Assembly: GCA_964600985.1 (NCBI GenBank)
Contig: CAZRJR010000001.1
Location: 235,534-299,533, forward strand
Length of the DNA: 64,000 bases
Direction of reading: 5' to 3'
Origin: an uncultured Candidatus Saccharibacteria bacterium
GTDB taxonomy: Bacteria > Patescibacteriota > Saccharimonadia > CAILAD01 > JADZBC01
Part shown: positions 1,120 through 25,077 of the stretch, piece by piece
Position numbering within the stretch: the first letter of the stretch is position 1
How the letters are laid out: each line of letters begins with the position of its first letter
Made by a program: the position numbers and the translations under genes
The notes under the pieces: model-generated
The model's input: the letters and a program-made list of their open reading frames with translations, nothing else
What the model was told of the DNA's origin: nothing
The model's database searches: none

Positions 1120-1173
1120 CCTGATCTCAGTATACTACCCAGCGCTCATTTTGTTGTGTTAAGATATTGCTTA

Positions 1174-2664
1174 ATGGCAAGGCAGAAAACAGCAGTAGTA
1201 ATTGGCGCGGGCATTGGTGGCTTGTGCGCCGCTGCACGCCTGCAAAAAGACGGCTACCAGGTGACTGTGGTCGAAAAGGAACCAATCATTGGTGGTCGGG
1301 CCCATGTAATTAAGCAAGACGGTTATACCTTTGATACTGGTCCAACCATCCTCATGATGACCGATGTGTTGTATGAAACTTTTCGCTATTGTGGCAAGGA
1401 TTTTGATGACTATATTTCGCTTTCACAACTCGAGCCTAATTACCAAGTGCGCTGGGCTGATGGCAGTGGCGTGGAGGTTTCGAGTAACCTGCCGCGATTT
1501 GCAGCGTCCTTGAGCCAGATAGACCCCAAGGCTCCAGAGCAGTTTTATAAGTTCTTTGCTGAAATGGCCAAGATGTATCGCGTGGGGCGCAATAAGTTTA
1601 TCGACAAGAACTTTGATAAGGTGACGGACTTTATTGATGTAAGGGCTGGGTTGGAGTTGGCTCGCAGTGGTGGTTTGCGCAAGCTCTACAGCTATGTGTC
1701 GAGCTTTTTTGACGACCCTCGCTTGCGTATGCTGTTTAGCTTCCAGGCTATGTATTTGGGCGTATCGCCCTACGAGGCTCCAGCGGTATACGGCATGGTG
1801 AGCTATATGGAGACTGGCTTAGGTATATGGTATCCGCAGGGCGGCATGCACAAACTGCCCGAAGCTTTGGGTAAGTTGGTCGAAGACTTAGGTGGCAGCA
1901 TTCGTACTTCGACGGCGGCGGCACGGGTTATGATTGAAGGCAAGACTGCCCGAGGTGTGGTATTGGAAAACGGTGAAGAATTACGCGCCGATGCGGTGGT
2001 ATGTAACGCTGACTTACCCTACGCTTACAAGCAGCTTGTGCCAGAGCAGTATCGTCCGCATAGTAACGACTCCAAGCTAACTACGCTCAAGCAAGCCAGT
2101 TCTGCGCTATTGTTTTACTGGGGTGTCGATGACGACATGGCTGGCATGTTGCACCATAATGTTTATTTCTCTAAGAACTTTAAGCAAAATCTGGACCAGA
2201 TCTTCCACGAAAACAAATTGCCGACCGACCCGGCATTCTACATATATGTTCCTACTAAGACTGATCCTGGCCTAGCTCCGAAGGGCAAGAACGTAGTTTA
2301 TATTTTGGTACCGGTCCCTAACTTAGCTGCTAAGATTGATTGGGAAAAAGCAGTGCCAAAGATTAAAACACGCATACTTGAGCGGATGAAAGCCATTTAT
2401 GGCCTCGACATAGAACGTAAGATTGAGTCAGAGGCAATATTTACACCCCAAGATTTTCAGTCCAAATTCAACCTAACTGACGGTACAGCGTTTGGCCTGA
2501 GCCACCACTTCTTTCAATCGGGCTATTTCCGACCGTCCAATAAGGCCCGTGATATTGCCCGACTATACTTCGTGGGGGCAAGTACCTACCCTGGTAGTGG
2601 CGTGCCGATGGTTACCCTAAGTGGCAAATTGGTGGCCGAGCGCATTAGCCGGGAGCTCGTATGA
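1174..2664 (+). CDS. crtI: phytoene desaturase (FAD-dependent)
   Basis: N-terminal dinucleotide-binding motif VVIGAGIGGL, ~500 aa, CrtI-like length and conserved C-terminus. An upstream in-frame GTG at 1156 is an alternative start. Confidence 0.85.
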   Translation: MARQKTAVVIGAGIGGLCAAARLQKDGYQVTVVEKEPIIGGRAHVIKQDGYTFDTGPTILMMTDVLYETFRYCGKDFDDYISLSQLEPNYQVRWADGSGVEVSSNLPRFAASLSQIDPKAPEQFYKFFAEMAKMYRVGRNKFIDKNFDKVTDFIDVRAGLELARSGGLRKLYSYVSSFFDDPRLRMLFSFQAMYLGVSPYEAPAVYGMVSYMETGLGIWYPQGGMHKLPEALGKLVEDLGGSIRTSTAAARVMIEGKTARGVVLENGEELRADAVVCNADLPYAYKQLVPEQYRPHSNDSKLTTLKQASSALLFYWGVDDDMAGMLHHNVYFSKNFKQNLDQIFHENKLPTDPAFYIYVPTKTDPGLAPKGKNVVYILVPVPNLAAKIDWEKAVPKIKTRILERMKAIYGLDIERKIESEAIFTPQDFQSKFNLTDGTAFGLSHHFFQSGYFRPSNKARDIARLYFVGASTYPGSGVPMVTLSGKLVAERISRELV

Positions 2665-3743
2665 AGGACTACGAAGACTTCTTTAGCTTAAATGAGCGTG
2701 TAGCGCGAGAAGTCGATGTGTATATGGCGGAGTACTTGGCCCATAAAACCAGTCAAGCCGCAAACATTGACCCACGATTTAGGCGCCTTCTGGCAGAAAT
2801 AGAACGAGTAGTTCGGCTTGGCGGTAAGCGTCTGCGCCCAACCCTCGCTGTCGTAGGCTACAAGGCAGTCGGGGGCCAAAACGATGAGTTGGCTTTGCGC
2901 GCTGGGGTGGCGCTGGAGCTTTTGCATATATTTATGTGTATTCACGATGATATTATGGATCACGACACTCTTCGTCATGGCGGGCTCAATATAACGGGGC
3001 GCTACAACACGATACTGGACAACCTTGAGCCCATGCTGCGTCAGCACATAGCAGAATCAATGTCACTCCTCGCCGGCGATTTACTTTTGACGTTTACGTA
3101 TGAAGTAATTAGTGCACTCGATCTGCCAGCCGATACGCGCTTTACGCTCCTCGAACAGCTTACCAAGACCACATTTACTACCGTTGGTGGGCAGCTTCTG
3201 GATGTACTCTACCCGCTTGAGGGTGAAGTTAGTGTGGGGCGTTTACTCAAAATTCCGCATTATAAAACGGGCATATATACATTTGTAAGTCCCTTACTGT
3301 TTGGGGCGACCCTGGCTGGCAGTAAGCAGGCGCAGAGTATGGAGATCATGCAGGAGTATGGCGAAAACCTTGGCATTACCTTCCAGATAGTGGATGATAT
3401 ACTCGGGGTATTCGGTACTACTGAATCTACTGGTAAACCAATCGTGTCTGATATGCGAGAGAATAAACCGACGATTTTGCGTCATTATGCTTTTGAGCTG
3501 TCGAGCCCAGAAGAGCACGCGGTGCTTGAAGCTGCATTCGGTAATCCAATTGCCGGCTCAAAAGAACTGGATGCAGTGCGAAAGATTATGGTTTCAAATG
3601 GTGCTCGAGCTAAGACGTTTGCCCAAGCCGAACAATATGCTCATCAGGCCAAACAAGCGCTCCTTCCACTCAGTGAGGCTGCACCCGAGCAATATGGCCA
3701 GCTCGTACAGCTAGCGGACTTCTGCTTAACCCGGGATCACTAA
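2661..3743 (+). CDS. polyprenyl synthetase (geranylgeranyl diphosphate synthase)
   Basis: FARM-like DDxxxxD (HDDIMDHD) and SARM-like (IVDDILG) motifs. The start overlaps the crtI stop. Confidence 0.8.
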   Translation: MKDYEDFFSLNERVAREVDVYMAEYLAHKTSQAANIDPRFRRLLAEIERVVRLGGKRLRPTLAVVGYKAVGGQNDELALRAGVALELLHIFMCIHDDIMDHDTLRHGGLNITGRYNTILDNLEPMLRQHIAESMSLLAGDLLLTFTYEVISALDLPADTRFTLLEQLTKTTFTTVGGQLLDVLYPLEGEVSVGRLLKIPHYKTGIYTFVSPLLFGATLAGSKQAQSMEIMQEYGENLGITFQIVDDILGVFGTTESTGKPIVSDMRENKPTILRHYAFELSSPEEHAVLEAAFGNPIAGSKELDAVRKIMVSNGARAKTFAQAEQYAHQAKQALLPLSEAAPEQYGQLVQLADFCLTRDH

Positions 3744-3744
3744 G

Positions 3745-4593
3745 GTGAAACCAACAGCAACGGAGCTTAAGGCAAGCTTTGCTTACTGCCGTAAGGTAAC
3801 ACGGCGTGCATCATCGACGTTTTACCTTGCTTCGCGTATGTTCGCGCCTGGGGTGCGCAATGATTTATGTGCTATCTACGCGTTTTGCCGCATTGCCGAC
3901 GATATAGCCGATGCGCCAGGGCTCAAGCAGCAAGATCGTAGGCAAGAACTTAGTTTGCTTACCCATACGCTTAAATCGGAACGCTATAGTGAGGGCGACG
4001 AACTGTGGCCGGCACTATTAGATACACTAGCGCGACATAAAGTACCCAAAACGTATTTCTATGAACTCCTGGAGGGCATGGAGCAAGACATAGCGCCTTT
4101 CGAGGTTAAGACGTATCGGGATCTGGAGAGGTACAGCTACTTAGTGGCTGGTACAGTCGGGGTTATGTGCGTGTATGTACTTGGTCAGCCGAGCCAAAAG
4201 GCACTCGCGGCCGCAAAGCAGCTTGGTATAGCTATGCAAATTACCAACATTCTGCGTGATGTCAGTGCTGATGCGGCAATAGGGCGCGTGTATTTGCCGA
4301 GTGATTTGTTAGCCCGCCACAACTTAAGTCGTAAGCAAGTATTACAAGCTCAAAACCAAGCCGCTCTCGCCCAGGTACTAAAGGAATTGGCGGCTCGAGC
4401 CGAGCAAAAGTATGACCTAGCCGCAGCTGGGCTGCCATACCTTACACCGGCTAATCGCCGACCAGTACAAATTGCCCTAAACTTATATCGGTCTATTCTT
4501 CGCCGCATAGAACAAAAGCACTATAACGTTTATAATACAAGAATACGCTTAAGCTTGGTTGCCAAGCTCATGGTAGTTGTACGAACACGCTAG
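3745..4593 (+). CDS. crtB: phytoene synthase
   Basis: Squalene/phytoene synthase signatures (YAFCRIADDIAD, ITNILRDV...D). Confidence 0.85.
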   Translation: MKPTATELKASFAYCRKVTRRASSTFYLASRMFAPGVRNDLCAIYAFCRIADDIADAPGLKQQDRRQELSLLTHTLKSERYSEGDELWPALLDTLARHKVPKTYFYELLEGMEQDIAPFEVKTYRDLERYSYLVAGTVGVMCVYVLGQPSQKALAAAKQLGIAMQITNILRDVSADAAIGRVYLPSDLLARHNLSRKQVLQAQNQAALAQVLKELAARAEQKYDLAAAGLPYLTPANRRPVQIALNLYRSILRRIEQKHYNVYNTRIRLSLVAKLMVVVRTR

Positions 4594-6074: not shown

Positions 6075-6266
6075 ATGAATAAGCTTATTACTTACATTTC
6101 GCTTTCCTATGCTGAGCTTCAGAAGGTAACCTGGCCCACTCGCAAGCAGGCCATCCAGCTTACCCTGATAGTAATTGCCTTCTCGGTAGTCCTGGCTGTC
6201 ATAGTTGGCGGGTTTGATACGATTATTCGCTCATTCTTGCAGCAAGTAATCTTAAAGGTGAAATAA
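6075..6266 (+). CDS. secE: preprotein translocase subunit SecE
   Basis: 63-aa single-TM protein immediately upstream of nusG, with the conserved secE-nusG-rplK-rplA order. Confidence 0.75.
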   Translation: MNKLITYISLSYAELQKVTWPTRKQAIQLTLIVIAFSVVLAVIVGGFDTIIRSFLQQVILKVK

Positions 6267-6806
6267 ATGAGCAAAGACAGCACCCCACAGGCTTGGTATG
6301 TAATCCATACCTACTCAGGCTACGAAGACCAGGTGGCCGACAACTTGCGCCAGCGCGTTGAGTCAATGGGCATGAGCGACAAAGTATTTAGCGTAATTGT
6401 ACCTAAAGAAAACCAGATCGAAATCAAAAACGGCAAGCGTCGTGTAGTAGAGCGCAAGATATTCCCCGGCTATATTCTAGTCGAAATGATCGTAACCGAA
6501 GACTCTTGGTATGTAGTGCGTAACACACCAAATGTAACGGGATTTGTTGGTACCGGCACCACACCATCACCGATTAGTGACGATGAAGTAAAGGCAATTC
6601 AGAAGCGTATGGGCGTGGAAGAGCCAAAGTACAAGGTTGACTTCTCGATTGGTCAGTTGGTAAACATAACCGATGGTCCGTTCAAGGGCTTTGATGGCGC
6701 AGTCAGTGAAATCGATGAAAGCAAAGGTAAGCTCAAAGTATTGGTTAACATGTTTGGTCGCGAGACTCCAGTGGAACTAGATAGCTTACAGGTAAAGAAA
6801 GTATAA
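6267..6806 (+). CDS. nusG: transcription termination/antitermination factor NusG
   Basis: NGN domain (WYVIHTYSGYE) plus C-terminal KOW motif (GQLVNITDGPFKGFDG). Confidence 0.9.
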   Translation: MSKDSTPQAWYVIHTYSGYEDQVADNLRQRVESMGMSDKVFSVIVPKENQIEIKNGKRRVVERKIFPGYILVEMIVTEDSWYVVRNTPNVTGFVGTGTTPSPISDDEVKAIQKRMGVEEPKYKVDFSIGQLVNITDGPFKGFDGAVSEIDESKGKLKVLVNMFGRETPVELDSLQVKKV

Positions 6807-6818
6807 AGAGGCTACACT

Positions 6819-7250
6819 ATGGCAGAAGCAAAAAAAGTAAAAGCACGACTTAAAATGGTTATTCCTGGTGGGGGTGCTACACCGGCCCCTCCCGTAGGCT
6901 CGGCCCTCGGTCAGCATGGCGTGAATATGATGGACTTTATTAACGCATTTAATGATCAGACTAAGGATGTTAAAGGCCAGCCGGTACCAACGAAGATTAC
7001 CGTGTACGAAGACAAGAGCTTTACTTTTACTACTAAATCAACACCAGCTGCAACTCTGATTAAGCAAGCTGCTGGTTTGCAAAAAGGCTCCGGCGTACCA
7101 CACAAGGAAAAGGTAGGTACCTTGTCTCAGGCTCAGCTTGCGCAGATTGCTGAGGCTAAGCTACCTGACTTGAGCGCCAACGATATTGAGGCTGCCAAGA
7201 AGGTGATTGCTGGTACAGCCCGATCGATGGGTATTGAAGTAGAGAAGTAA
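6819..7250 (+). CDS. rplK: 50S ribosomal protein L11
   Basis: Canonical L11 sequence ([23 protein letters not shown]). Confidence 0.95.
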
Positions 7251-7315
7251 CAACATATAACTAAGTGGGAGGCGCCTGCCGAGCAGACGCCGCTACAACC
7301 ACCAAGGAGAAAACT

Positions 7316-8272
7316 ATGACAACCAAACAGAAGAACGAAGTCCCAAAAAATGAAGACACAAAAGAGAAAGTAGAACAAGAAGTAGTCGAAGCCCCAGAAG
7401 CTACTATACAAGAATCACCGGTTACCGCTAAGCCTAAGGCAACTACCAAGGCTGGCAAACAATCAGCTAAGGCACAGCGCGAAGCCGAGGAGCTTGAGCG
7501 CAAAGAAGCTCGCAAGGAAGTTGCTGCACACCAAGAACCAGCCCCAAGGCCAAAAGCTAAACCACGAGTTAAAACCTACAGCAAGAAGCAAAAGGCTGCT
7601 CGCGAGCTTGTAGACAAAGCTAGGCTCTATACACTCCAGGAAGCCGTGGAGCTGGCGCCAAAACTTTCACAAACTAAGTTTGATGCCAGCGTGGAGCTTC
7701 ACATAGCCCTCGGTATTGATCCACGCCAAGCGGATCAGCAGTTTCGTACGGGCGTAGTACTGCCTGCAGGTACTGGTAAGTCAGTTCGTGTAGCTGTACT
7801 TGCGGAGCCAAAATTAGCCGAAGCTGCCAAGCAAGCTGGCGCTGACCTAAGCGACAGCGATCAAATCCTGGCCGATATCGAAAAAGGTAAGTTTGATTTT
7901 GATATTCTGGTAGCTACACCGGCTCAAATGGCAGTACTCGGACGCCATGCCAAGGCATTGGGTCCAAAAGGCCTCATGCCATCACCTAAGAGCGGTACCG
8001 TAAGTGCTGATCCAGCCAAGGCAGTTAGTGAGATCAAAAAAGGTCGCTTGGATCTTAAAAACGATGCCAACGGCATCATTCACGTAGCCTTTGGTAAGGT
8101 TAGCTTTAAGCCAGCTGATTTACTTGCGAACGCTCAGGCGGTAGTTACTACCGTGGTGCAGAATCGTCCTACGGGCGTGAAGGGTGTATACATTAAGTCA
8201 GCCTTTGTGGCTGCAAGCATGAGCCCCTCAATTAAGCTTGATACCAATAGCTTTACTACCGACAAAAAGTAA
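7316..8272 (+). CDS. rplA: 50S ribosomal protein L1 with a ~100-aa K/E/A-rich N-terminal extension
   Basis: C-terminal 230 aa align to bacterial L1 (GTGKSVRVAV, LGPKGLMPSPK, GVYIKS). AAGGAG sits 8 nt before the ATG at 7316. Confidence 0.9.
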   Translation: MTTKQKNEVPKNEDTKEKVEQEVVEAPEATIQESPVTAKPKATTKAGKQSAKAQREAEELERKEARKEVAAHQEPAPRPKAKPRVKTYSKKQKAARELVDKARLYTLQEAVELAPKLSQTKFDASVELHIALGIDPRQADQQFRTGVVLPAGTGKSVRVAVLAEPKLAEAAKQAGADLSDSDQILADIEKGKFDFDILVATPAQMAVLGRHAKALGPKGLMPSPKSGTVSADPAKAVSEIKKGRLDLKNDANGIIHVAFGKVSFKPADLLANAQAVVTTVVQNRPTGVKGVYIKSAFVAASMSPSIKLDTNSFTTDKK

Positions 8273-8297
8273 ATTCCCAGCTAAGCCAACTTACTGC

Positions 8298-8334
8298 AAA
8301 AAGCGCCGTATACAATAATAAGCGGCGCTTTTTG
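8298..8334 (+). terminator. rho-independent terminator after rplA
   Basis: AAGCGCCG/CGGCGCTT 8-bp stem, 14-nt loop, followed by TTTTGT. Confidence 0.6.
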
Positions 8335-8352
8335 TAGGATTGTGCGTATATA

Positions 8353-9225
8353 GTGTCTTGCCAGGGTAGCCTACCGCCATATACAATGGTACAAAAGGGG
8401 GTGTGTGTGGGTGAGCAGACAAATGGTCGTGCACAAGCATGGTTTCGTGAGCAGGTAAATTCCAGTGACTTTGACCTTGCGGCAATCGAAATGTACCAAC
8501 GCAAAGTTGGCAGGCCATTTTCGGGTGTAATGGGAGATGGTGAGATCCAAGCTGCTTTGCGCTCGGGCCAGATAGTAATAGATCCGTTTGATCCGGATTT
8601 ACTCCAATCATCTAGTTATGACGTCCGTCTAGGTGGCTGGTTCTACTCGGCTGAACGACTTGGGCATAGAGTCGACTTCTCACCATATGCCGAAAGTGAA
8701 GTACGCGAATACTACTCTGGGCCGCACAAAGCCATTAGTCACAAGCAGTGGTGTAGTGACCACCAGCGCCAGCCGTTTAAAGGTATTGGTGAGGATGAGC
8801 TGGTAATTGTACTGGCGCCCGGAGAGTGTATTTTAGGCCACACGGTAGAATACATTGGTGCGGCATACGGCGCTACCACTATGATGAAAGCTCGCTCGAG
8901 CTTGGGTCGAATAAATATCTCTACCTGTGATGATGCTGGGTGGGGCGATGTTGGCTACATAAACCGTTGGACTATGGAGATCCGTAATAAGAACCAAGAT
9001 GTATGGGTGCCATTGGTGGTTGGTATGCCGATTGGGCAGCTGATATTCCTGTGGGTGGCCGGCTCAACTAAGGACTATAGCGACGGTGGTCACTACCAGT
9101 CGGGAGTAGATGTAAAATCACTCAAGCAATCGTGGAAGCCGGAATCTATGTTGCCGCGTATCTGGTCGCCCAAGAACACGGAGATTCGTTCGCGTTTGCT
9201 CAAAAACTCGAAGCAGGTTTTTTGA
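8353..9225 (+). CDS. dcd: dCTP deaminase family protein (start uncertain; core domain begins near 8527)
   Basis: Motifs GQIVIDPFDP, SYDVRLG, SSLGR and DAGW(G)D(V)GY of the dCTP deaminase/dUTPase superfamily. Confidence 0.75.
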   Translation: MSCQGSLPPYTMVQKGVCVGEQTNGRAQAWFREQVNSSDFDLAAIEMYQRKVGRPFSGVMGDGEIQAALRSGQIVIDPFDPDLLQSSSYDVRLGGWFYSAERLGHRVDFSPYAESEVREYYSGPHKAISHKQWCSDHQRQPFKGIGEDELVIVLAPGECILGHTVEYIGAAYGATTMMKARSSLGRINISTCDDAGWGDVGYINRWTMEIRNKNQDVWVPLVVGMPIGQLIFLWVAGSTKDYSDGGHYQSGVDVKSLKQSWKPESMLPRIWSPKNTEIRSRLLKNSKQVF

Positions 9226-9301
9226 ACGCTAAGTAAGCTCCCCTCTGACAAAGAAGGGGGCTTTGAGGCGAAAGTCAAAGAACCTTGAAAGGAATTTGAT
9301 C

Positions 9302-10939
9302 ATGAATAGTAGAGCGGCAAGTCCTTACACGGTTGAGGAATTCACGGCCGATGAGGAGGTGATTCTTCGACGATTCTTCACGAACGTTGATCTGCCAGTT
9401 TTTGCCATCAGCGGTCTACCTGAGGTGGTGTCCGCAGCGCTATTTGCTCGGTACTCGCGTACTCCGAAGAGTCTCCGACGTCTCTTCCTGGATGAGTTCT
9501 ACGAGAATCTCACTCATAATGACGAGACACCCGCGGTTGCGGCTGGTCTGCGACGTGCAAGTGAGTTGTTTGACAAAGTTTTCTTCGAGTATGGAGACGA
9601 CTCAGTTGGGCAGCTGGGGGGCGTGCACTTGGCGTGTGAACAGGCAAGCAACTTGCTTACCAAGATCCTTGAGTGGGGCCGGCTCATGGCGTATTTGGAG
9701 CAGTCCACTCGCTATATCTCCTACGGAGATCGAGTTGACGGCCAGTTCCGCTACTACCGAGATCCAGAGATTCTTGCTCACCCCGTGCTTGGTCCGGATT
9801 ACCTCAGCGTGATGGATGCCACATTCGAGGACTACATCTCCTTGGCGGCTGATCTGTTGCCGGCCTGTATGGAGCTGCATCCCCGCAAGGAAGGAGACAC
9901 CGACGCGGCACATCGTCGGGCGATGCAAGCAAAGGTTCTGGATAACGTCCGGGGGTTGCTGCCCGCAGCAACCGTCTCGAACATGGGCATCTATGGCACT
10001 GGTCAAGCATTCGAGAACATGCTCATGCGTATGCGCAGTTTGGCATTGCCAGAAGCACGCACGTATGCGGACATGATGCTCGCGGAGCTTCGCAAGGTGA
10101 TTAGCCCATTCATGAGTAGGGTTGATTTGCCGGATCGGGGCAACCTCACCAGTGCCTACCTCGAGAGAAATAGAGAGGAAACAAGGCGCTTAGCCGAGCA
10201 GCTTTTGGCCGAGGAAGCAATCGAACCAACGCCTGAAGTCGTGCTGCTTGATTTTGACCCCGACATCGAAGTCAAACTGGTGGCCGCAATTTTGGCTGAG
10301 TCTACCCACTATGGGGAAGCCCAGCTACGTAGTCGTGTTGCTCAAATGTCAGTACAGGATCGACTCGCTGTGCTGATGACCTACTTCGGCGACCGGTCTG
10401 TAAACCGTCGTCATAAGCCGGGTCGGCATCTTGAGCTGGGCATGTATCGCTTTGAGGTGCTGAGCAACTACGGTGCTTTCCGCGACCTCCAACGTCATCG
10501 CATGATGACGATTACCTGGCAGTCGCTTACACCGGTTCACGGTTTTGCAATACCAGCATTGGTTGAGGTGGCTGGGAAGCAAGATCAGTACGTGGCTGTG
10601 TTGGAGCGACAAGCCGGTCTGTACGAACGCCTTGCAGACTCGTTTCCAGAGGACGCTCAACCTCAGTACGCACTCGGGTTTGCCTTCAATATGCGGTACG
10701 CAATTGAGATCAACGCTCGAGCATTGACACATATGCTCGAACTTAGAACTCAAGCCGCTGGTCACGACGACTATCGGCGGGTTTGCCAGGAAATGCATCG
10801 ACAAATCGCACAGTTGCCTGGTCACCAGGCGATTGCAGCGATGATGCGCCATGTTGACTATGACCGCTACGACTTAGGTCGGCTCGCTGCAGAAGAGCGA
10901 CTCGAAGCCAAGCGTGCGGCGCAACTGGACGGCGAGTAG
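9302..10939 (+). CDS. thyX: FAD-dependent thymidylate synthase ThyX, double-length (tandem/fused) form
   Basis: C-terminal half carries the ThyX signature RHRMMTITWQS (RHRX7S). The N-terminal half is ThyX-like but degenerate. 545 aa versus ~230 for a typical ThyX. Confidence 0.75.
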   Translation: MNSRAASPYTVEEFTADEEVILRRFFTNVDLPVFAISGLPEVVSAALFARYSRTPKSLRRLFLDEFYENLTHNDETPAVAAGLRRASELFDKVFFEYGDDSVGQLGGVHLACEQASNLLTKILEWGRLMAYLEQSTRYISYGDRVDGQFRYYRDPEILAHPVLGPDYLSVMDATFEDYISLAADLLPACMELHPRKEGDTDAAHRRAMQAKVLDNVRGLLPAATVSNMGIYGTGQAFENMLMRMRSLALPEARTYADMMLAELRKVISPFMSRVDLPDRGNLTSAYLERNREETRRLAEQLLAEEAIEPTPEVVLLDFDPDIEVKLVAAILAESTHYGEAQLRSRVAQMSVQDRLAVLMTYFGDRSVNRRHKPGRHLELGMYRFEVLSNYGAFRDLQRHRMMTITWQSLTPVHGFAIPALVEVAGKQDQYVAVLERQAGLYERLADSFPEDAQPQYALGFAFNMRYAIEINARALTHMLELRTQAAGHDDYRRVCQEMHRQIAQLPGHQAIAAMMRHVDYDRYDLGRLAAEERLEAKRAAQLDGE

Positions 10940-11002
10940 CCGTAAGTGGCCCTGGGGGAAACTCCGGGGTCACAGCCATTCCTTATACTGTATACTTAGA
11001 CT

Positions 11003-12256
11003 ATGAACAAAATATTCAGTCTTACCAAAAGTGAGTTTGCTCGTCAGCGCGACACCCTTAATTTGATAGCGAGCGAGAACTACCCTTCGCAAAAAGTACT
11101 CGATTTGCTAGGGTCGGTTTGGCAGAATCGCTATAGCGAAGGCTACCCGGGTAAGCGTTACTATGCCGGTCAAGTATATACCGACGAGCTCGAAACATAT
11201 GTGCAACAGTTAGCACTGCGCGCATTCGATCCTACGGGCGAGTACGGCGTAAATGTGCAATTGCTTTCTGGCTCGCCGGCCAATGCCATGGTGTACATGG
11301 CGGCCCTGAACCCCGGCGACACCATATTGAGCATAAAGCTGAGTAATGGTGGGCATCTGAGCCACCTGCATGAAACCAGTGCCTATAATAAGTTTTATAA
11401 ACATGTTACCTACGATGTGGTGGAATCTTCCCCTGGCGTATTTGAGATAGATGTAGCTGACTTCGAAGCCCAGCTTAAAAAGCACAAGCCCCAACTAACT
11501 ATCATTGGCTTTTCCGCTTACCCACGAGCATACGACTGTGCTCGGCTTTGCCGCCTAGCGCACGAGCATGGTAGCTTGGTACTGGCCGACATTGCCCACA
11601 TTGCAGGCTTGGTGGCGGCTGGTTTGCATAGTAGTCCGTTTAGGGCCGACCAAGACGGCGCGGACTACATTACCATGACTACGCACAAAACCTTGCGAGG
11701 TCCACGTGGTGCTCTCGTCTTTGGCAAAAAAGACCATATGGAAATGTTTAATAAGACGGTTTTTCCAGGTACGAGTGGCGGACCACATATGCACCAAGTA
11801 GCCGCTACCGGTCAGGCATTGCTCGAGGTTTTGGGAGAAGACCAGCACCCAGATGGGGTGACATTTGCAACCTACTGCGCGCAAGTAATTAAGAACGCCC
11901 AGGCGTTGGAGCGTGGAGTGCGTTCGGGGGGCCTAACGATCGTGAGCCCCACTCAGACTCACTTAAGCCTAATTCGCTTGCCTGAGGAAAGTGATAGCCT
12001 TGCCGCTCAGCAACAGCTCGAACAGCTGGGCATAGTTCTGAACCGCAATATGGTCTTTAACGATCCTAAATCAGCCTGGCGACCAAGTGGACTCAGGGTA
12101 GGCACAGCGGCACTTACGAGTCGTGGGCTAAACGAGATGCAGGCTGAAGCATTGGGCAGCCTCGTGGCTGGCGTGGTGCAGAGCTCACTAAGCGACAAGC
12201 AAGCTCGCGTCCAGGTGCAAAAGATGGTGAGTGAACTCGCTTGGTGGTACATCTAG
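11003..12256 (+). CDS. glyA: serine hydroxymethyltransferase
   Basis: LIASENY and TTHKTLRGPRG (PLP-lysine) motifs. Confidence 0.9.
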   Translation: MNKIFSLTKSEFARQRDTLNLIASENYPSQKVLDLLGSVWQNRYSEGYPGKRYYAGQVYTDELETYVQQLALRAFDPTGEYGVNVQLLSGSPANAMVYMAALNPGDTILSIKLSNGGHLSHLHETSAYNKFYKHVTYDVVESSPGVFEIDVADFEAQLKKHKPQLTIIGFSAYPRAYDCARLCRLAHEHGSLVLADIAHIAGLVAAGLHSSPFRADQDGADYITMTTHKTLRGPRGALVFGKKDHMEMFNKTVFPGTSGGPHMHQVAATGQALLEVLGEDQHPDGVTFATYCAQVIKNAQALERGVRSGGLTIVSPTQTHLSLIRLPEESDSLAAQQQLEQLGIVLNRNMVFNDPKSAWRPSGLRVGTAALTSRGLNEMQAEALGSLVAGVVQSSLSDKQARVQVQKMVSELAWWYI

Positions 12257-12270
12257 GCAGCGCCTGGGCA

Positions 12271-12299
12271 TTGACCACAACATAGTAATCTGGTACTAT
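12271..12299 (+). promoter_or_regulatory. candidate promoter (TTGACC-N17-TACTAT) ahead of a ~230-nt rplJ leader
   Basis: Hexamers read directly. The long untranslated leader before rplJ is consistent with an L10(L12)4 autoregulatory leader. Confidence 0.4.
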
Positions 12300-12533
12300 A
12301 CTTGCAGTGAACCAAAGACCGTAGCCGGCAAGCGAACATCGTGTTAGAGCGCTGCCTTAATCTGCTACGAGAGGCGAGAAGCAATATATAGTGTGTAGTA
12401 TGTGATCATATATACACTTAAGGAAGCATTTCAACTCTTTGGTGAACGCCAAAGTTTTTTTGTTTTGTTGGCGCGAGCGCGCTGGTCGAAGGCAAACAAA
12501 GCACCTATCACTATTAACAAAAGGGTTTTCAAT

Positions 12534-13070
12534 ATGGCAAAAACTCGCGAACGAAAAGAAGCTGACGTAGCCAAAATGTCCGAACTCTTTACGAGCTCTA
12601 AGCTCGCAGTGCTAACCGATTACCGTGGCCTCGATGTCCCGGCAATTAACGAACTGCGCTCTAAGCTCAGAGATTCTGGCATTACCTACACAGTTGCTAA
12701 AAACACCCTGGTAAAGCTTGCCCTGGCTAATGCCCCGCAAAAAGACACCGATACTTCGGTACTCACCGGACCAATGGCGATTGCTTTTGGCGCCGACGAA
12801 GTGGTGGCGGCTAAGATTGTGGCGGAGTTTGCTAAGGAGTACGAGGCGCTCGATATTATCGGTGCGATCACCGACGAGGGTGTAGTGCTTACCAAAGCTG
12901 AAGTTAAGGCATTGGCCTCACTGCCAAGCCGCGAGCAGCTCATTGCTCAGTTGGTTGGCACAATTGCTGCACCACTATCTGGCTTTGTGCGAGTGCTTAA
13001 CGGCAACTTATCGGGTATTGTGTACGCAATTTCAGCAATCCAAGAAAAGAAAGCTGCTCAGGCTAGCTAA
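12534..13070 (+). CDS. rplJ: 50S ribosomal protein L10
   Basis: Start MAKTRERKEADV, L10 fold motifs, directly upstream of rplL. Confidence 0.9.
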   Translation: MAKTRERKEADVAKMSELFTSSKLAVLTDYRGLDVPAINELRSKLRDSGITYTVAKNTLVKLALANAPQKDTDTSVLTGPMAIAFGADEVVAAKIVAEFAKEYEALDIIGAITDEGVVLTKAEVKALASLPSREQLIAQLVGTIAAPLSGFVRVLNGNLSGIVYAISAIQEKKAAQAS

Positions 13071-13094: not shown

Positions 13095-13535
13095 ATGGCA
13101 GACGAAGTAAAAGAAACTGCAGAAGTAGTAGAAGAAAAAGCTAAAACCGAAGTTCCAGAAAAGTTCAAAGGCCTAGTAGGTGAGATCGAAAAGCTCAGCG
13201 TACTTGACTTATCTGAACTCGTTAAAGTACTTGAAGATCACTTTGGTGTAAGCGCTGCTGCCCCTATGGCTGTAGCAGCTGCCCCAGCTGCCGCTGGCGA
13301 AGCTGCCGCCGCGGAAGAGGAAAAGGCTAATTACGATATTGTTCTTACCGCCGCTGGCGACAAGAAGATCGAAGTGATTAAGGCTGTTCGAGAAATCTCT
13401 GGCCTTGGTTTGGCTGAGAGTAAAGCGCTTGTAGATGCTGCGCCAAAGACGGTTAAGGAAGCTGCTCCTAGGGCAGAGGCCGACGAAGCTAAGGCTAAGC
13501 TTGAAGCTGCCGGTGCTACCGTAGAGCTTCAGTAA
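13095..13535 (+). CDS. rplL: 50S ribosomal protein L7/L12
   Basis: Ala-rich hinge and conserved C-terminal domain ([24 protein letters not shown]). Confidence 0.95.
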
Positions 13536-13544
13536 GCTTTACGC

Positions 13545-13600
13545 AGTTCTAGCAAAAAAGAGGCCCTGGAGAGATCCGGGTCACTTTTTTGTGTTGACTC
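13545..13600 (+). terminator. probable terminator after rplL (GC-rich hairpin flanked by an A-tract and a T-tract)
   Basis: aaaaaagaggccctggagagatccgggtcactttttt. The exact stem was not resolved by eye. Confidence 0.4.
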
Positions 13601-13683
13601 AACTAGTGAAGAATAATCGCTCACCAGGTTGGCATTTTGTAACTAAAGTGTTACACTAAGGCAAATCAGATAAAACATATCTT

Positions 13684-14232
13684 ATGACAGAAAAAGACAA
13701 ACAACAGATAAATCTTCAGGCATTGGCTAACCAGCTTGAATCGGCCGAGTCAAGCTTACGTGAGGTGCATCGTCTCATTCAGGAGCTGGGGGTAAAGCCA
13801 GAGGATCTACCAGAGCCCAAGGCTGCTCGTGCACCACGGGCTCCGCAAGGCGTAACGGCCGTGGCAGGCAAGGTGATCGAGGGCAAGTTCGACGGACAGC
13901 ATATGATTGGGGCCGACAGTAAGTCTTACCCAGTGCCAGCCAACTATGCCTCTAAGTCAAAGCTCGTTGAGGGCGACACACTCAAGCTCACCATTGCCGA
14001 AGATGGCTCATTTATTTATAAGCAAATTGGTCCGATTGAGCGCAAAAAGTTGATCGGCAAGCTCATACTCGAAGATGGCCAGTACAGGGTAGAAGCCGGT
14101 GGTCAGCGCTATAATGTATTGTTTGCAAGCGTCACGTACTTTAAGGGCAATCCAGGAGACGAGGTAACGATCGTAACGCCAGCAAATGGCCAGGCATCTT
14201 GGGCGGCGATCGAAGCAATTATTGGTGCTTAG
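13684..14232 (+). CDS. hypothetical protein
   Basis: 182-aa ORF with an RBS-like context. No recognisable motif. Confidence 0.45.
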   Translation: MTEKDKQQINLQALANQLESAESSLREVHRLIQELGVKPEDLPEPKAARAPRAPQGVTAVAGKVIEGKFDGQHMIGADSKSYPVPANYASKSKLVEGDTLKLTIAEDGSFIYKQIGPIERKKLIGKLILEDGQYRVEAGGQRYNVLFASVTYFKGNPGDEVTIVTPANGQASWAAIEAIIGA

Positions 14233-14320
14233 CTGTCCGTTAAGCGCGTGCTTCACTTGTAGATGTGGCGCTCCGGGCGCTATAATAAGTATGACGAATT
14301 AGAAGTGAACTGGAGGGGTT

Positions 14321-15781
14321 TTGTCTCGTATTGCGTTATATCGCAAATATCGTTCGGCCGACTTTGCCGATGTGGTGGGCCAGCAGCACGTTACTCGCAC
14401 GCTCGAAGCTGCCGTGCAACGTGGGCTGATTAGCCATGCTTACTTGCTGACCGGTCCGCGTGGTGTGGGTAAAACAAGCATCGCGCGGATACTGGCTCGA
14501 CGAGTCAATGAGCTGCCGTTAGACGCCGACATAGGCCGCGAGCTAGACATCATCGAGATCGATGCTGCCTCTAACCGTGGAATAGACGAGATGCGTTCAT
14601 TGCGCGAAAAGATCGTGAGTGCACCAACGACTTTGCGATACAAGGTATACATAGTCGACGAGGTACATATGCTCACGCGCGAGGCGTTCAATGCCCTGCT
14701 CAAGACGCTCGAAGAGCCACCAGCTCATGCGATTTTTATCCTTGCTACCACCGAAGCACACAAGTTACCCGAGACTATCATCTCGCGCACCCAGCGCTTT
14801 GATCTGCGGCCCATTACCGAGGCTGACCTGGTGAGCCGACTTGCAGTAATTGCCGAAAGCGAGGGGATTAGCATAGAGCAGCCTGCTCTCAAGATGATCG
14901 CTCACGCTAGTAGGGGCGGCTTTCGCGATGCCATAAGCCTGCTAGATCAGCTGTCGGTTGCGAATGAGAGTATAGGTGTACAGCACGTGGCGGCTACGCT
15001 TGGCATGGTGGCAGAAGAGGATATTCAGGCACTGCTCGCTGCGATGGGCAAACATGATACAGTAACCTTATTCGCGCAGCTAGAAGCGATGATCGGTGCG
15101 GGCAATGATCCCCAGAGCCTTACAAGACAGCTTTTAGACGCGCTACGAATCAGTCTTATAGCGCGGGTCGGGAAGAAGTCTACAGATACTAAGTTGTCAC
15201 TGGACCAGATTGCTTGGGCTGTAAGCTGTTTAACCAAGGCCATGGCGGATTTTAAGATAACCCAGCATTATAGCTTGCCACTGGAGCTTGCCCTATACCG
15301 AGCTACTCAGCAGTCAGGGGTTGGTACTGCAATCCAGACGAAAGCTAAGTCGCACGTGGCGACTCAACCGTCCGCTTCGCCTACGCCCCAGACTACTTCG
15401 CCGTCACCACAAGCCAGCAAATCTAAACCCAGCCGGCAGCCCGAGGTGGTGAATGTTGACACCGAGAGTCTATGCACCAAAGGACTGAGCTTAATCAAGG
15501 AACGTAATAATTCGCTTTATGCGGTGATGCGCTCAGCTAACCCGCGGATGGAGGGTGATACCCTGGTTTTGGAATGTCGGTTTAGTTTTCATAAGGAGCG
15601 CATCGAGGAACAAAAGAACCGGATGCTGATCGAGCAGATTATGAGCAAAACCTTTGGCCACGACATCACGCTCGATTGTCGTTTGAGCAAGCCAGAAACT
15701 ACGCACAGTGAAGTTGATAGCGAAAAGGAGCTAGTGGCTTCAGCACTCGAAATATTGGGAGGTGAGGTGGTAAATGGCTAA
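14321..15781 (+). CDS. dnaX: DNA polymerase III subunit gamma/tau
   Basis: Walker A GPRGVGKTS, SRC-like motif and clamp-loader box order. TTG start. Confidence 0.9.
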   Translation: MSRIALYRKYRSADFADVVGQQHVTRTLEAAVQRGLISHAYLLTGPRGVGKTSIARILARRVNELPLDADIGRELDIIEIDAASNRGIDEMRSLREKIVSAPTTLRYKVYIVDEVHMLTREAFNALLKTLEEPPAHAIFILATTEAHKLPETIISRTQRFDLRPITEADLVSRLAVIAESEGISIEQPALKMIAHASRGGFRDAISLLDQLSVANESIGVQHVAATLGMVAEEDIQALLAAMGKHDTVTLFAQLEAMIGAGNDPQSLTRQLLDALRISLIARVGKKSTDTKLSLDQIAWAVSCLTKAMADFKITQHYSLPLELALYRATQQSGVGTAIQTKAKSHVATQPSASPTPQTTSPSPQASKSKPSRQPEVVNVDTESLCTKGLSLIKERNNSLYAVMRSANPRMEGDTLVLECRFSFHKERIEEQKNRMLIEQIMSKTFGHDITLDCRLSKPETTHSEVDSEKELVASALEILGGEVVNG

Positions 15782-17132
15782 GGCTGCTGCTACAACTAAG
15801 TCGGGCGATAAGCTCCCACCGCAGAATTTGCAGGCCGAGGCTAGTTTGCTTGGCTCCCTTATGCTGGACAAGGACGCTATTATTAAAGTGGCCGATGTCG
15901 TGCATGGTGATGACTTTTACGCCACCAAGAACCGACTTATTTTCGAAGCAATCTTGAGCTTATATGAAAAGCGTGAGCCACTCGATGTGGTTACACTTTC
16001 TAACAAGCTTGAAACCATGGGCGAGCTAGAAAACGTTGGTGGGGCTACCTACCTAACTAGTTTGGTTAATGGCGTGCCGTCGGCAGCCCATGTTGCCAAC
16101 TATGGCCAGATTGTGGCTCAAAAGGCTACACTACGTCGGCTGATCACGGCTGCCAACATGATTGGCAACATGGCTTACGATGAAGATCAACCCCTCGATG
16201 GGCTGCTCGACGGCGCAGAGCAGGTACTATTTGATGTGTCGCAAAAACATCTCAAACAGAACTTTACTTCGATGAAGGAAGTACTGGCTGATAGCTTTGA
16301 CCGACTTGACTCGCTCCACAAAGACAAAGGTAAGCTGCGCGGTTTGCCAACTGGCTTCCGGGGCTTGGACAACATCTTAGCTGGGCTGCAGAAGTCAGAC
16401 CTGCTTATATTGGCTGCACGACCGGCTATGGGCAAGTCTACCTTGGCGTTAAACATTGCCCAAAATGTGGCAATTAAGCAGGGTGTCCCGGTCGGGGTAT
16501 TTAGTTTAGAAATGAGTAAAGAGCAACTAGTAGACCGCCTATTGGCAGCTGAAGCAGGCATTGACTCATGGCGTTTACGCACGGGTAATTTGGAAGATAA
16601 AGACTTCGAAAAACTCAATAAAGCCATGGGTACCTTGGCGGAAGCACCGATATACTTTGACGATTCGGCGATGGCGAATGTAATGGAAATGCGTACCAAA
16701 GCACGACGCTTGCAAAGCGAGAATGATTTGGGCTTGATCGTTATCGACTATTTGCAGCTTATGAGTGGGCGCAATAACGGTGGCGAAAACCGAGTGCAGG
16801 AAATATCAGAAATCTCTCGTGGACTTAAGGGTTTAGCGCGTGAGTTAGACATCCCGGTTATTGCACTGTCGCAGCTGTCACGCGAAGTAGAGAAGCGCAG
16901 CCCACAAATACCCCAGCTATCTGATTTGCGGGAGTCGGGCTCGATCGAGCAGGACGCGGACGTAGTTATGTTTATTTACCGTGACGAATACTACCATCCG
17001 CAAGATACCGAGAAGCCCAACACGGCCGAAATTATCATTGCCAAGCACCGTAACGGACCGACTGGACATGTGGATCTTTACTTCAAAGCTGACGAAATGC
17101 GCTTTAAGAACCTCGACAAAGCTCATTCTTAG
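15774..17132 (+). CDS. dnaB: replicative DNA helicase
   Basis: DnaB N-terminal domain (LPPQNLQAEASLLGS) and RecA-like core (ARPAMGKST). Confidence 0.9.
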   Translation: MAKAAATTKSGDKLPPQNLQAEASLLGSLMLDKDAIIKVADVVHGDDFYATKNRLIFEAILSLYEKREPLDVVTLSNKLETMGELENVGGATYLTSLVNGVPSAAHVANYGQIVAQKATLRRLITAANMIGNMAYDEDQPLDGLLDGAEQVLFDVSQKHLKQNFTSMKEVLADSFDRLDSLHKDKGKLRGLPTGFRGLDNILAGLQKSDLLILAARPAMGKSTLALNIAQNVAIKQGVPVGVFSLEMSKEQLVDRLLAAEAGIDSWRLRTGNLEDKDFEKLNKAMGTLAEAPIYFDDSAMANVMEMRTKARRLQSENDLGLIVIDYLQLMSGRNNGGENRVQEISEISRGLKGLARELDIPVIALSQLSREVEKRSPQIPQLSDLRESGSIEQDADVVMFIYRDEYYHPQDTEKPNTAEIIIAKHRNGPTGHVDLYFKADEMRFKNLDKAHS

Positions 17133-24384: not shown

Positions 24385-24488
24385 TGGTGAGGGGAGGATT
24401 TGAACCTCCGCGTAGTTTTACGACCCGAAGGCCTTCATCGCTAGGCAGGTTTTCAACCCGCTCCATTCGTCCACTCTGGCACCCCACC
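24385..24488 (-). tRNA. tRNA-like gene, 104 nt, class-II-like (anticodon loop folds as TTGAAAA by hand; identity unresolved)
   Basis: Perfect acceptor stem (GGTGGGG/CCTCACC, one G-U), D-arm with a GG motif, 5-bp anticodon stem, and a canonical T-arm (GGAGG-TTCAAAT-CCTCC). There are 35 nt between the anticodon stem and the T-arm, too long for a normal variable arm. Confidence 0.45.
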
Positions 24489-24860: not shown

Positions 24861-25004
24861 TGGGCGAGAAGCGCAGGACGTTACTCCCACAAACTCTCAG
24901 TTCACGTCTGAGCGCTGACTTACAGCTTCTTCTCTGATACTCATCTTTGCTTTTGTGTTCATGCTTTCACGTCGCACATACACTACTAATTCCAATGAGC
25001 CTTG

Positions 25005-25077
25005 TGGGGGCGAGAGGCATCGATCCTCTGACTTCTGGTTCTTCACGCCAGCGCTCTGCCAACTGAGCTACACCCCC
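25005..25077 (-). tRNA. tRNA, 73 nt (anticodon tentatively GAA/Phe; unusual T-loop ATCGATG and a C31-A39 mismatch)
   Basis: Acceptor GGGGGTG/CGCCCCC, canonical D-arm GCTC-AGTTGGCA-GAGC, T-stem AGAGG/CCTCT. Confidence 0.5.

Follow-up and report, generated by a model that had tools for sequence, protein, structure and literature searches.

A 64,000-nucleotide stretch of DNA from an uncultured Candidatus Saccharibacteria bacterium (contig CAZRJR010000001.1, positions 235,534 to 299,533 of the forward strand; hereafter the window) carries three genes, dcd, thyX and glyA, in the slot between the ribosomal protein gene pairs rplKA and rplJL. The explanation we consider probable is that this is a thymidylate gene cluster typical of its lineage. 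It would occupy a gap between two operons, encode a FAD-dependent (FAD, flavin adenine dinucleotide) thymidylate synthase (ThyX) composed of two tandem domains with reciprocal residue losses, and have had its occupants exchanged within a conserved slot. Window coordinates are used throughout, and the loci used for comparison are labelled L001 to L014.

According to profile searches, secE (6075-6266), nusG (6267-6806), rplK, rplA, dcd, thyX, glyA, rplJ and rplL follow each other in this order on the forward strand. The slot and its borders comprise the following genes:

6819-7250, forward strand: rplK, upstream border of the slot (Pfam Ribosomal_L11_N/L11)
7265-8272, forward strand: rplA, upstream border of the slot, an open reading frame (ORF) of 335 amino acids (aa) (Pfam Ribosomal_L1)
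8407-9225, forward strand: dcd, 272 aa (Pfam DCD, 96 bits)
9302-10939, forward strand: thyX, 545 aa (Thy1, 98.6 bits in two stretches)
11003-12256, forward strand: glyA, 417 aa (Pfam SHMT, 355 bits)
12534-13070, forward strand: rplJ, downstream border of the slot (Pfam Ribosomal_L10)
13095-13535, forward strand: rplL, downstream border of the slot (Pfam L12)

The start of dcd is most likely the GTG at 8407 and not position 8353, because an independent assembly calls GTG 8407 and a promoter-like site falls inside the extension from 8353. The thyX gene starts at ATG 9302, preceded by an AAAGGA ribosome-binding site, and rplJ starts at ATG 12534 according to the gene calls in L001. An earlier note on this DNA had placed the three genes inside the rplKAJL block; their identity, strand and order were confirmed, and the view that they were inserted there and split one block was not supported as stated, as detailed below.

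The thymidylate cluster in the rplKA/rplJL gap is lineage-typical for Saccharimonadia-like bacteria of the Candidate Phyla Radiation (CPR). The slot was occupied in relatives as follows, with the identity of NusG to that of the window where available:

L002: dcd-tmk-thyX, NusG 93% identical
L003: dcd-tmk-thyX, NusG 81% identical
L007/L008: dcd-tmk-thyX-glyA, all four genes, NusG 83% identical
L009: dcd-tmk-thyX, a Candidatus Saccharibacteria metagenome-assembled genome (MAG)
L011/L012: dcd-tmk-thyX plus extra genes, NusG 69% identical
L014: hyp-dcd-tmk-thyX

In all relatives examined, rplK-rplA precede the module. The window represents a variant without tmk and with glyA, the latter being absent from some relatives; tblastn with three Tmk queries detected no tmk homologue within the 64-kb window. 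Outside the CPR, tandem thyX was found alone in an unrelated conserved tatC-helY context, an actinobacterial style of neighbourhood that belongs to the sister clade of the window-type thyX. Since at least six related CPR lineages share the arrangement, insertion as an event in this genome does not describe it.

The thyX product is a genuine single-chain tandem of two ThyX-fold domains:

9302-10201, forward strand: N-terminal ThyX-fold domain, residues 1-300 (Pfam, hhalign, AlphaFold2 (AF2)/Foldseek, conservation)
10202-10939, forward strand: C-terminal ThyX-fold domain, residues 301-545 plus stop codon (Pfam, hhalign, AF2, Foldseek, conservation)

When the halves were scanned separately for Thy1, the N half scored 50.7 bits and the C half 55.3 bits, both above the Pfam gathering score of 24.8 (PF02511); the double match for which the earlier note had recommended a scan is thus present. 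The chain of 545 aa is about 2.5 times as long as Thermotoga maritima ThyX (220 aa), in agreement with the roughly 2.4-fold length noted before. An AF2 model of the N half alone, built from a more diverse alignment, reached a predicted local distance difference test (pLDDT) value of 83.8 and a predicted template modelling (pTM) score of 0.72. Its top 50 PDB matches in Foldseek were all ThyX, including Mycobacterium tuberculosis ThyX at E = 5.7e-7. For the full-length model, the top PDB matches were ThyX and PolB (E about 3e-6, TMt 0.6-0.7). The proposed covalent tandem of two ThyX-fold domains is therefore upheld by the Thy1 scores of both halves and by the matches of the N-half model. At the sequence level, neither the single protein nor the family profile gave a significant PDB match to ThyX (best E = 0.011). 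The profile-profile alignment of the N half to the C half was also insignificant (E = 0.18), the halves having diverged too far to be recognised directly as repeats.

It is hardly credible that the fusion is an artefact of assembly or of a frameshift between two neighbouring thyX genes. The unusual length is the one feature in its favour. Against it, the reading frame runs through the whole gene without interruption, an identical protein of 545 aa is encoded both on the 486,810-bp NCBI contig and on an independent Logan assembly, and there are thousands of full-length homologues of 510-580 aa. Neither an N half without the ThyX fold nor a frameshift fusion, the two doubts raised in the earlier note, was found.

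The degeneration of the two ThyX halves is reciprocal. Residues were mapped by aligning the half-profiles (hhalign) to T. maritima ThyX, the sequence of which was confirmed to be identical to PDB 1KQ4/1O26; these alignments are statistically weak and were trusted as the motif anchors agree. Conservation was counted in a sample of 115 full-length diverse representatives, 31-55% identical to the ThyX of the window. The N half carries the motif LEW-G-R127-LMAYL-E133-Q-S135-T-R137-Y138. Its residues R127, E133, S135, R137, Y138 and R217 correspond to T. maritima R80 (conserved in 111 of the 115 representatives), E86 (110), S88 (112), R90 (113), Y91 (109) and R147 (all 115). In the same half, W-G replaces R78-H79 and Q-A-F replaces N163-A-R165, and the R78/H79 positions are variable across the family.

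The C half shows the complementary set. Its residues R398-H399-R400, N471-A-R473 and R482 correspond to T. maritima R78-H79-R80, N163-A-R165 and R174, with conservation of 113/115 for R78, 110/115 for H79, 112/115 for R80, 103/115 for N163, 107/115 for R165 and 108/115 for R174. An alignment gap spans T. maritima positions 82-93, so that the E86-Y91 loop is deleted, and the equivalent of R147 is lost. The signature RHRX7S(-x-RY) is not complete within either domain and becomes complete only across both. Furthermore, three tandem lineages with an identity of no more than 36-40% showed the reciprocal residue pattern as well.

The residue pattern bears directly on the earlier description, which ascribed an intact RHRX7S to the C-terminal copy and took the N-terminal copy for a degenerate ThyX repeat. 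Taken literally, this would make the C-terminal domain the working ThyX and the N-terminal domain a degenerate scaffold giving the dimer interface only. The C half of the window does read RHR-MMTITWQ-S, it is the sole detectable sequence match to solved ThyX, and it has the higher pLDDT in the full-length model. However, the Ser position of the C-half motif is variable across the family (P in 23, L in 19, D in 16, A in 11 and R in 10 of the 115 representatives, among others), and this half lacks both the stretch equivalent to T. maritima 82-93 and the R147 equivalent. The N half, in turn, retains E86, S88, R90, Y91 and R147 in 109-115 of the 115 sequences. Ser88, Arg90 and Tyr91 are reported to be critical in ThyX (PMC11940539), and such purifying selection is unexpected on a scaffold. 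We therefore regard a purely structural N-terminal domain as unlikely. Because the Ser position is variable and conservation of the loop is confined to the N half, the RHRX7S serine in the C half of the window is a coincidence of one sequence, and the earlier description of the two copies is wrong.

Reciprocal loss suggests how the chain may work. In PBCV-1 ThyX the active site is composite, with Ser88 and Gln89 contributed by one monomer and Gln75 together with the R174-equivalent Arg by another (PMC3498832). Each canonical ThyX site is built from several subunits, the Ser88 loop coming from one monomer and Gln75 and the R174-equivalent Arg from a second one. Since the canonical site is composite and the residues of the tandem protein are split between its domains, we infer one composite active site per chain, in which the N-domain loop would reach the RHR/R174 pocket of the C domain. 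Each tandem chain would supply one complete composite site, the C domain acting in one of these roles and the N domain in the other. A dimer of tandem chains would then resemble the tetramer while having two working sites rather than four.

More tentatively, and with our doubts slightly outweighing our confidence, this can be extended to the whole tandem-ThyX family as an obligate 'half-of-sites' flavoenzyme. The domains would have been subfunctionalised after duplication and fusion, leaving two sites per tetramer-like dimer and freeing two vestigial pockets. As part of the same proposal, the vestigial pockets might have another role, for example in NADPH or regulatory nucleotide binding. Neither the half-of-sites reading nor the reciprocal residue pattern was described in the literature searched, including Valas & Bourne 2009.

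Tandem ThyX proteins form a large family that is already known, has members in CPR bacteria, Actinomycetota, Chloroflexi and other groups, and has no solved structure. A word-indexed protein search returned at least 8000 scored matches, mostly of 530-545 aa and annotated as 'FAD-dependent thymidylate synthase' or 'thymidylate synthase ThyX'. In a HMMER search over 1.84 billion cluster representatives, 5,722 clusters (50% identity) were found at E ≤ 1e-3 and 1,657 at E ≤ 1e-30. Nearly all of the best 150 family representatives matched the profile end to end (positions about 1-533). The ThyX of the window has the traits of this family, namely a chain of about 510-580 aa, an end-to-end profile match, two Thy1 domains and the reciprocal residues. 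In comparison, the ThyX chains returned from the PDB were all single-domain proteins of 216-270 aa.

The domain duplication itself has been reported. The ThyX of non-Dehalococcoides Chloroflexi 'contains a domain duplication... has not been characterized' and is the only thymidylate synthase of these bacteria (Valas & Bourne 2009, PMC3224940). Literature searches on tandem, fused or duplicated ThyX found nothing beyond that paper. A phage origin of tandem ThyX was considered and rejected, as the 50,697 phage records searched contained one weak partial match. Separately, many Saccharimonadales/Patescibacteria proteins of about 765-820 aa have the composition Tmk-ThyX-ThyX (PF02223 + PF02511) and are labelled only 'dTMP kinase' (e.g., P0281, P0289, P0326 and P0328).

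Comparison of the loci indicates that the occupants of the slot have not followed their flanking genes. L003, L007 and L009 are similarly distant from the window, with NusG 81-83% and L11 72-79% identical. The ThyX of the window is 66% identical to that of L003, 36% identical to that of L007, and unalignable to that of L009. The product of the thyX position in L009 (8576-9712) has 378 aa, with one Thy1 domain at residues 7-211 followed by a long C-terminal extension. At the same locus, the place of rplJ is taken by a gene for a protein with NHL/fn3 repeats that exceeds 2,100 aa. In a wider comparison, the ThyX of the window was 57-59% identical to Acidimicrobiia/Actinomycetota proteins and 36-38% identical to the ThyX of CPR relatives.

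In a bootstrapped neighbour-joining tree (69 sequences, 517 columns; bootstrap values 100/94/100), the window-type CPR thyX genes formed a monophyletic clade (100%), sister to the Actinomycetota-type sample (94%). Both clades stood apart from the usual CPR type, in which fusion to Tmk is common (mean distances 0.66 vs 1.22). The thyX tree and the sequence identities are incongruent with organismal relationships, which implies replacement in situ or ancient paralogy; thyX in the slot has probably been exchanged among CPR lineages. Similarly, dcd has been swapped within the slot, because the Dcd of L003 (6274-7218, 314 aa) is only 35% identical to that of the window, whereas the flanking ribosomal genes are 62-81% identical. 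Altogether, the slot holds two deeply divergent tandem types and one single-domain type of thyX and two types of dcd, and tmk and glyA are each present or absent.

These data also bear on another reading, in which this genome alone acquired the module recently as a horizontally transferred island, which broke a formerly contiguous rplKAJL operon. Support for such an island comes from the GC content of thyX (0.55 vs 0.49 for the whole window), from the greater similarity of ThyX to Actinomycetota than to CPR relatives, and from literature reports that in Patescibacteria glyA and genes for thymidylate synthase have been transferred horizontally. The GC argument is weak, since the L007 thyX, which is of the other type, is also raised above its locus (0.49 vs 0.42). 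Raised GC was accordingly rejected as evidence of horizontal gene transfer. The higher GC of thyX (~55%) pointed out in the earlier note is thus real and not diagnostic of foreign origin, and it probably reflects protein composition. Furthermore, relatives with NusG identities from 93% down to 69% have dcd-(tmk)-thyX-(glyA) in the slot, the flanks contain no mobility genes or repeats, and separate signals accompany rplKA and rplJL. As the window-type thyX genes form a CPR clade of their own that is sister to, and not nested in, the Actinomycetota sample, any transfer of thyX would be old. A recent island is consequently quite unlikely, and a lineage-typical cluster with exchanged occupants remains our preferred explanation.

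Candidate transcription signals were found around and within the slot:

8296-8335, forward strand: terminator-like hairpin with a U-run at the end of the rplKA unit (-22 kcal/mol, z = -5.68, 0/200 shuffles as stable)
8358-8387, forward strand: promoter-like site TTGCCA-18-TACAAT 5' of dcd (consensus match only)
9235-9263, forward strand: stable hairpin between dcd and thyX with no clear U-tract (-20.6 kcal/mol for 9226-9270, z = -3.28)
10946-10973, forward strand: stable hairpin between thyX and glyA (-23.7 kcal/mol, z = -3.15)
12271-12299, forward strand: promoter-like site 5' of the rplJ leader region (consensus scan)
12294-12470, forward strand: probable rplJ (L10) leader (full-length match to Rfam L10_leader, RF00557)

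A weak attenuator-like hairpin with a U-run was located at 12437-12461, within the probable L10 leader. Given the hairpin after rplA and the promoter-like site and L10-leader-like RNA before rplJ, the thymidylate module would lie at a natural operon boundary and would not break an operon. Consequently, the proposed splitting of one block is better described as a position between two predicted transcription units. A promoter-like -10 element, TATACT (consensus match only; 10969-11003, forward strand), ends 6 nucleotides 5' of the glyA ATG, and the glyA transcript might be leaderless.

The gene identities support the view that dcd, thyX and glyA form a coherent set for the conversion of deoxyuridine monophosphate (dUMP) to deoxythymidine monophosphate (dTMP) and the regeneration of methylene-tetrahydrofolate (methylene-THF), as the earlier note suggested. 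The activities described here are predicted from the families of the proteins and from textbook ThyX chemistry. Dcd belongs to the family PF22769 by its Pfam match, and its SSLGR motif and catalytic Glu align to PDB 2QXX. Its closest solved relatives include 1OGH (Methanocaldococcus jannaschii, named dUMP-forming), 2QXX/4A6A and 4XJC; E. coli-type Dcd was not among the matches at E ≤ 1e-3. 2QXX (M. tuberculosis Rv0321), 4A6A and 4XJC are bifunctional dCTP deaminase-dUTPases, although the search output labels 2QXX simply 'Deoxycytidine triphosphate deaminase'. The Dcd of the window is probably of this dUMP-forming (bifunctional) type. The nearest homologues that carry a name are dCTP deaminases of Patescibacteria and Candidatus Saccharibacteria/Saccharimonadia; with the named ThyX homologues, they assign the window to a Saccharimonadia-like CPR bacterium. 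CPR and Chloroflexi Dcd have been reported to adjoin the eukaryotic Dcd2 clade (Niu et al. 2023).

The glyA product is a serine hydroxymethyltransferase (SHMT; PF00464), scoring 391 bits against NF000586 (cut-off 335) and carrying the pyridoxal phosphate-lysine motif TTHKTLRGPRG. It is 59% identical to the product of glyA in the same slot of L007. ThyX yields tetrahydrofolate (THF), not dihydrofolate. In the proposed pathway, Dcd would take dCTP towards dUMP, probably directly, and no separate Dut would then be needed to feed ThyX. ThyX would methylate dUMP with methylene-THF and release THF, which SHMT would reload from serine, so that dihydrofolate reductase would not be needed. The adjacency of thyX and glyA would be functionally sensible, since ThyX and SHMT would close a two-enzyme folate cycle.

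Several results weigh against parts of this account. The ThyX scored 39.1 bits against the NCBIfam equivalog TIGR02170, below its cut-off of 87.9, and Dcd scored 83.5 bits against TIGR02274, below the equivalog cut-off of 92.8. In the full-length AF2 model the C half reached pLDDT 80-97 and the N half was poor. Foldseek ranks PolB, a UMP/dUMP methylase, beside ThyX, so that dUMP is a putative substrate. The neighbour-joining tree is unrooted and its sequences were the top matches to two queries, which limits what it can say on the direction and timing of transfer. Among the transcription signals, the L10_leader match scored 26.6 bits (E = 0.35), below the gathering score of 44, and the number of promoter-like sites in the region equals chance expectation, making them weak evidence.

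Some of these points would also fit a ThyX-fold methylase acting on another substrate, such as UMP, as PolB does, or a modified nucleotide. The score is well under the ThyX equivalog cut-off, the top Foldseek match of the full-length model was PolB, and no solved ThyX gave a significant sequence match. In contrast, the gene is constantly adjacent to dcd and tmk, is frequently fused to Tmk and has SHMT as a neighbour, and the canonical dUMP-contacting residues are all conserved somewhere in the chain. Furthermore, the status of the duplicated form as the sole thymidylate synthase of non-Dehalococcoides Chloroflexi (PMC3224940) implies dTMP production. We thus consider a different substrate improbable and retain thymidylate synthesis as the likely function of the tandem enzyme.

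Other features were observed near the slot. The L1 protein has an N-terminal extension of about 100 aa, rich in Lys, Glu and Ala (7265-7600, forward strand), so that the Pfam L1 domain starts at residue 133 of 335; at all related loci the L1 protein is similarly long (313-340 aa). Downstream of rplL (13535-17132, forward strand), a 182-aa ORF is followed by dnaX and dnaB, with no rpoB or rpoC. The 182-aa ORF has no Pfam match and is 65-90% identical in relatives, and the order 182-aa ORF-dnaX-dnaB also occurs in L002, L003 and L007.

Upstream of secE (1156-4593, forward strand), the window encodes a phytoene-desaturase-like amine oxidase, a polyprenyl synthetase and a squalene/phytoene synthase. 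This carotenoid/squalene-like trio is syntenic in CPR relatives, which is notable given such reduced metabolism. At 24385-24488 on the reverse strand, a full-length Rfam tRNA match (46.6 bits, 104 nucleotides) was found with a 33-nucleotide variable region. Its anticodon loop, UUGAAAA, would give the anticodon GAA, and ARAGORN makes no call at this site. An ordinary tRNA-Phe(GAA) lies nearby at 25004-25077.

For annotation, the rplKA/rplJL gap can be treated as a stable home of thymidylate genes in Saccharimonadia-like CPR bacteria, and the long ThyX in the slot as a genuine enzyme family rather than a mis-assembly. For enzymology, reciprocal residue loss predicts that each 60-kDa chain has a single FAD site and a single dUMP site. 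A structurally distinct subclass of ThyX is worth knowing, since humans lack this antibacterial target. In evolutionary terms, the locus is a compact case of a conserved position with exchanged occupants, in organisms with a minimal nucleotide-metabolism toolkit. The additions made here are a corrected motif assignment with probable reciprocal subfunctionalisation, likely gene replacement in a conserved slot, and the predicted operon-boundary location. The arrangement is ordinary for the lineage and does not overturn current understanding; its interest is modest, the structure-function inference included.

Known systems offer several points of comparison. In Escherichia coli, rplKA and rplJL-rpoBC are separate units, the L11 operon and the L10 operon with its L10 leader. 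The window resembles the E. coli rplKAJL-rpoBC region in having a terminator-like hairpin after rplA and, before rplJ, a promoter-like site of its own and an L10-leader-like RNA. Unlike in E. coli, the two units are 4.2 kb apart with three metabolic genes between them, and rpoBC does not follow rplL.

Among dCTP deaminases, the best solved relatives of the Dcd are the bifunctional dCTP deaminase-dUTPases of M. tuberculosis (Rv0321, 2QXX) and M. jannaschii (DCD-DUT, 1OGH), with which its catalytic motifs align. These enzymes have about 190 aa, whereas the Dcd of the window reaches 272 aa through about 40 additional N-terminal residues and an internal insertion.

The Tmk-ThyX-ThyX fusions of Candidatus Saccharimonadales/Patescibacteria share with the window the lineage, the tmk-thyX neighbourhood and the tandem ThyX. 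They differ in carrying the other tandem subfamily, about 36-40% identical to the ThyX of the window, the locus of which lacks tmk. The domain-duplicated ThyX of Chloroflexi has the same architecture as the ThyX of the window, which aligns end to end with this large family, and a homologue from a Dehalococcoidia MAG (partial match) is 47% identical. What sets the present case apart from that of Chloroflexi is the CPR host and the ribosomal-protein slot that holds the gene.

Finally, the canonical homotetrameric ThyX, also known as FDTS (T. maritima TM0449, M. tuberculosis Rv2754c, PBCV-1 A674R; PF02511, TIGR02170), has the same fold as both halves. Its active-site residue set is the one found in the tandem chain, and the same chemistry would be expected, namely FAD-dependent methylation of dUMP with methylene-THF. 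The canonical enzyme consists of one domain of about 220-270 aa and has four sites at three-subunit interfaces, whereas the 545-aa chain of the window has two domains and is predicted to form two sites.

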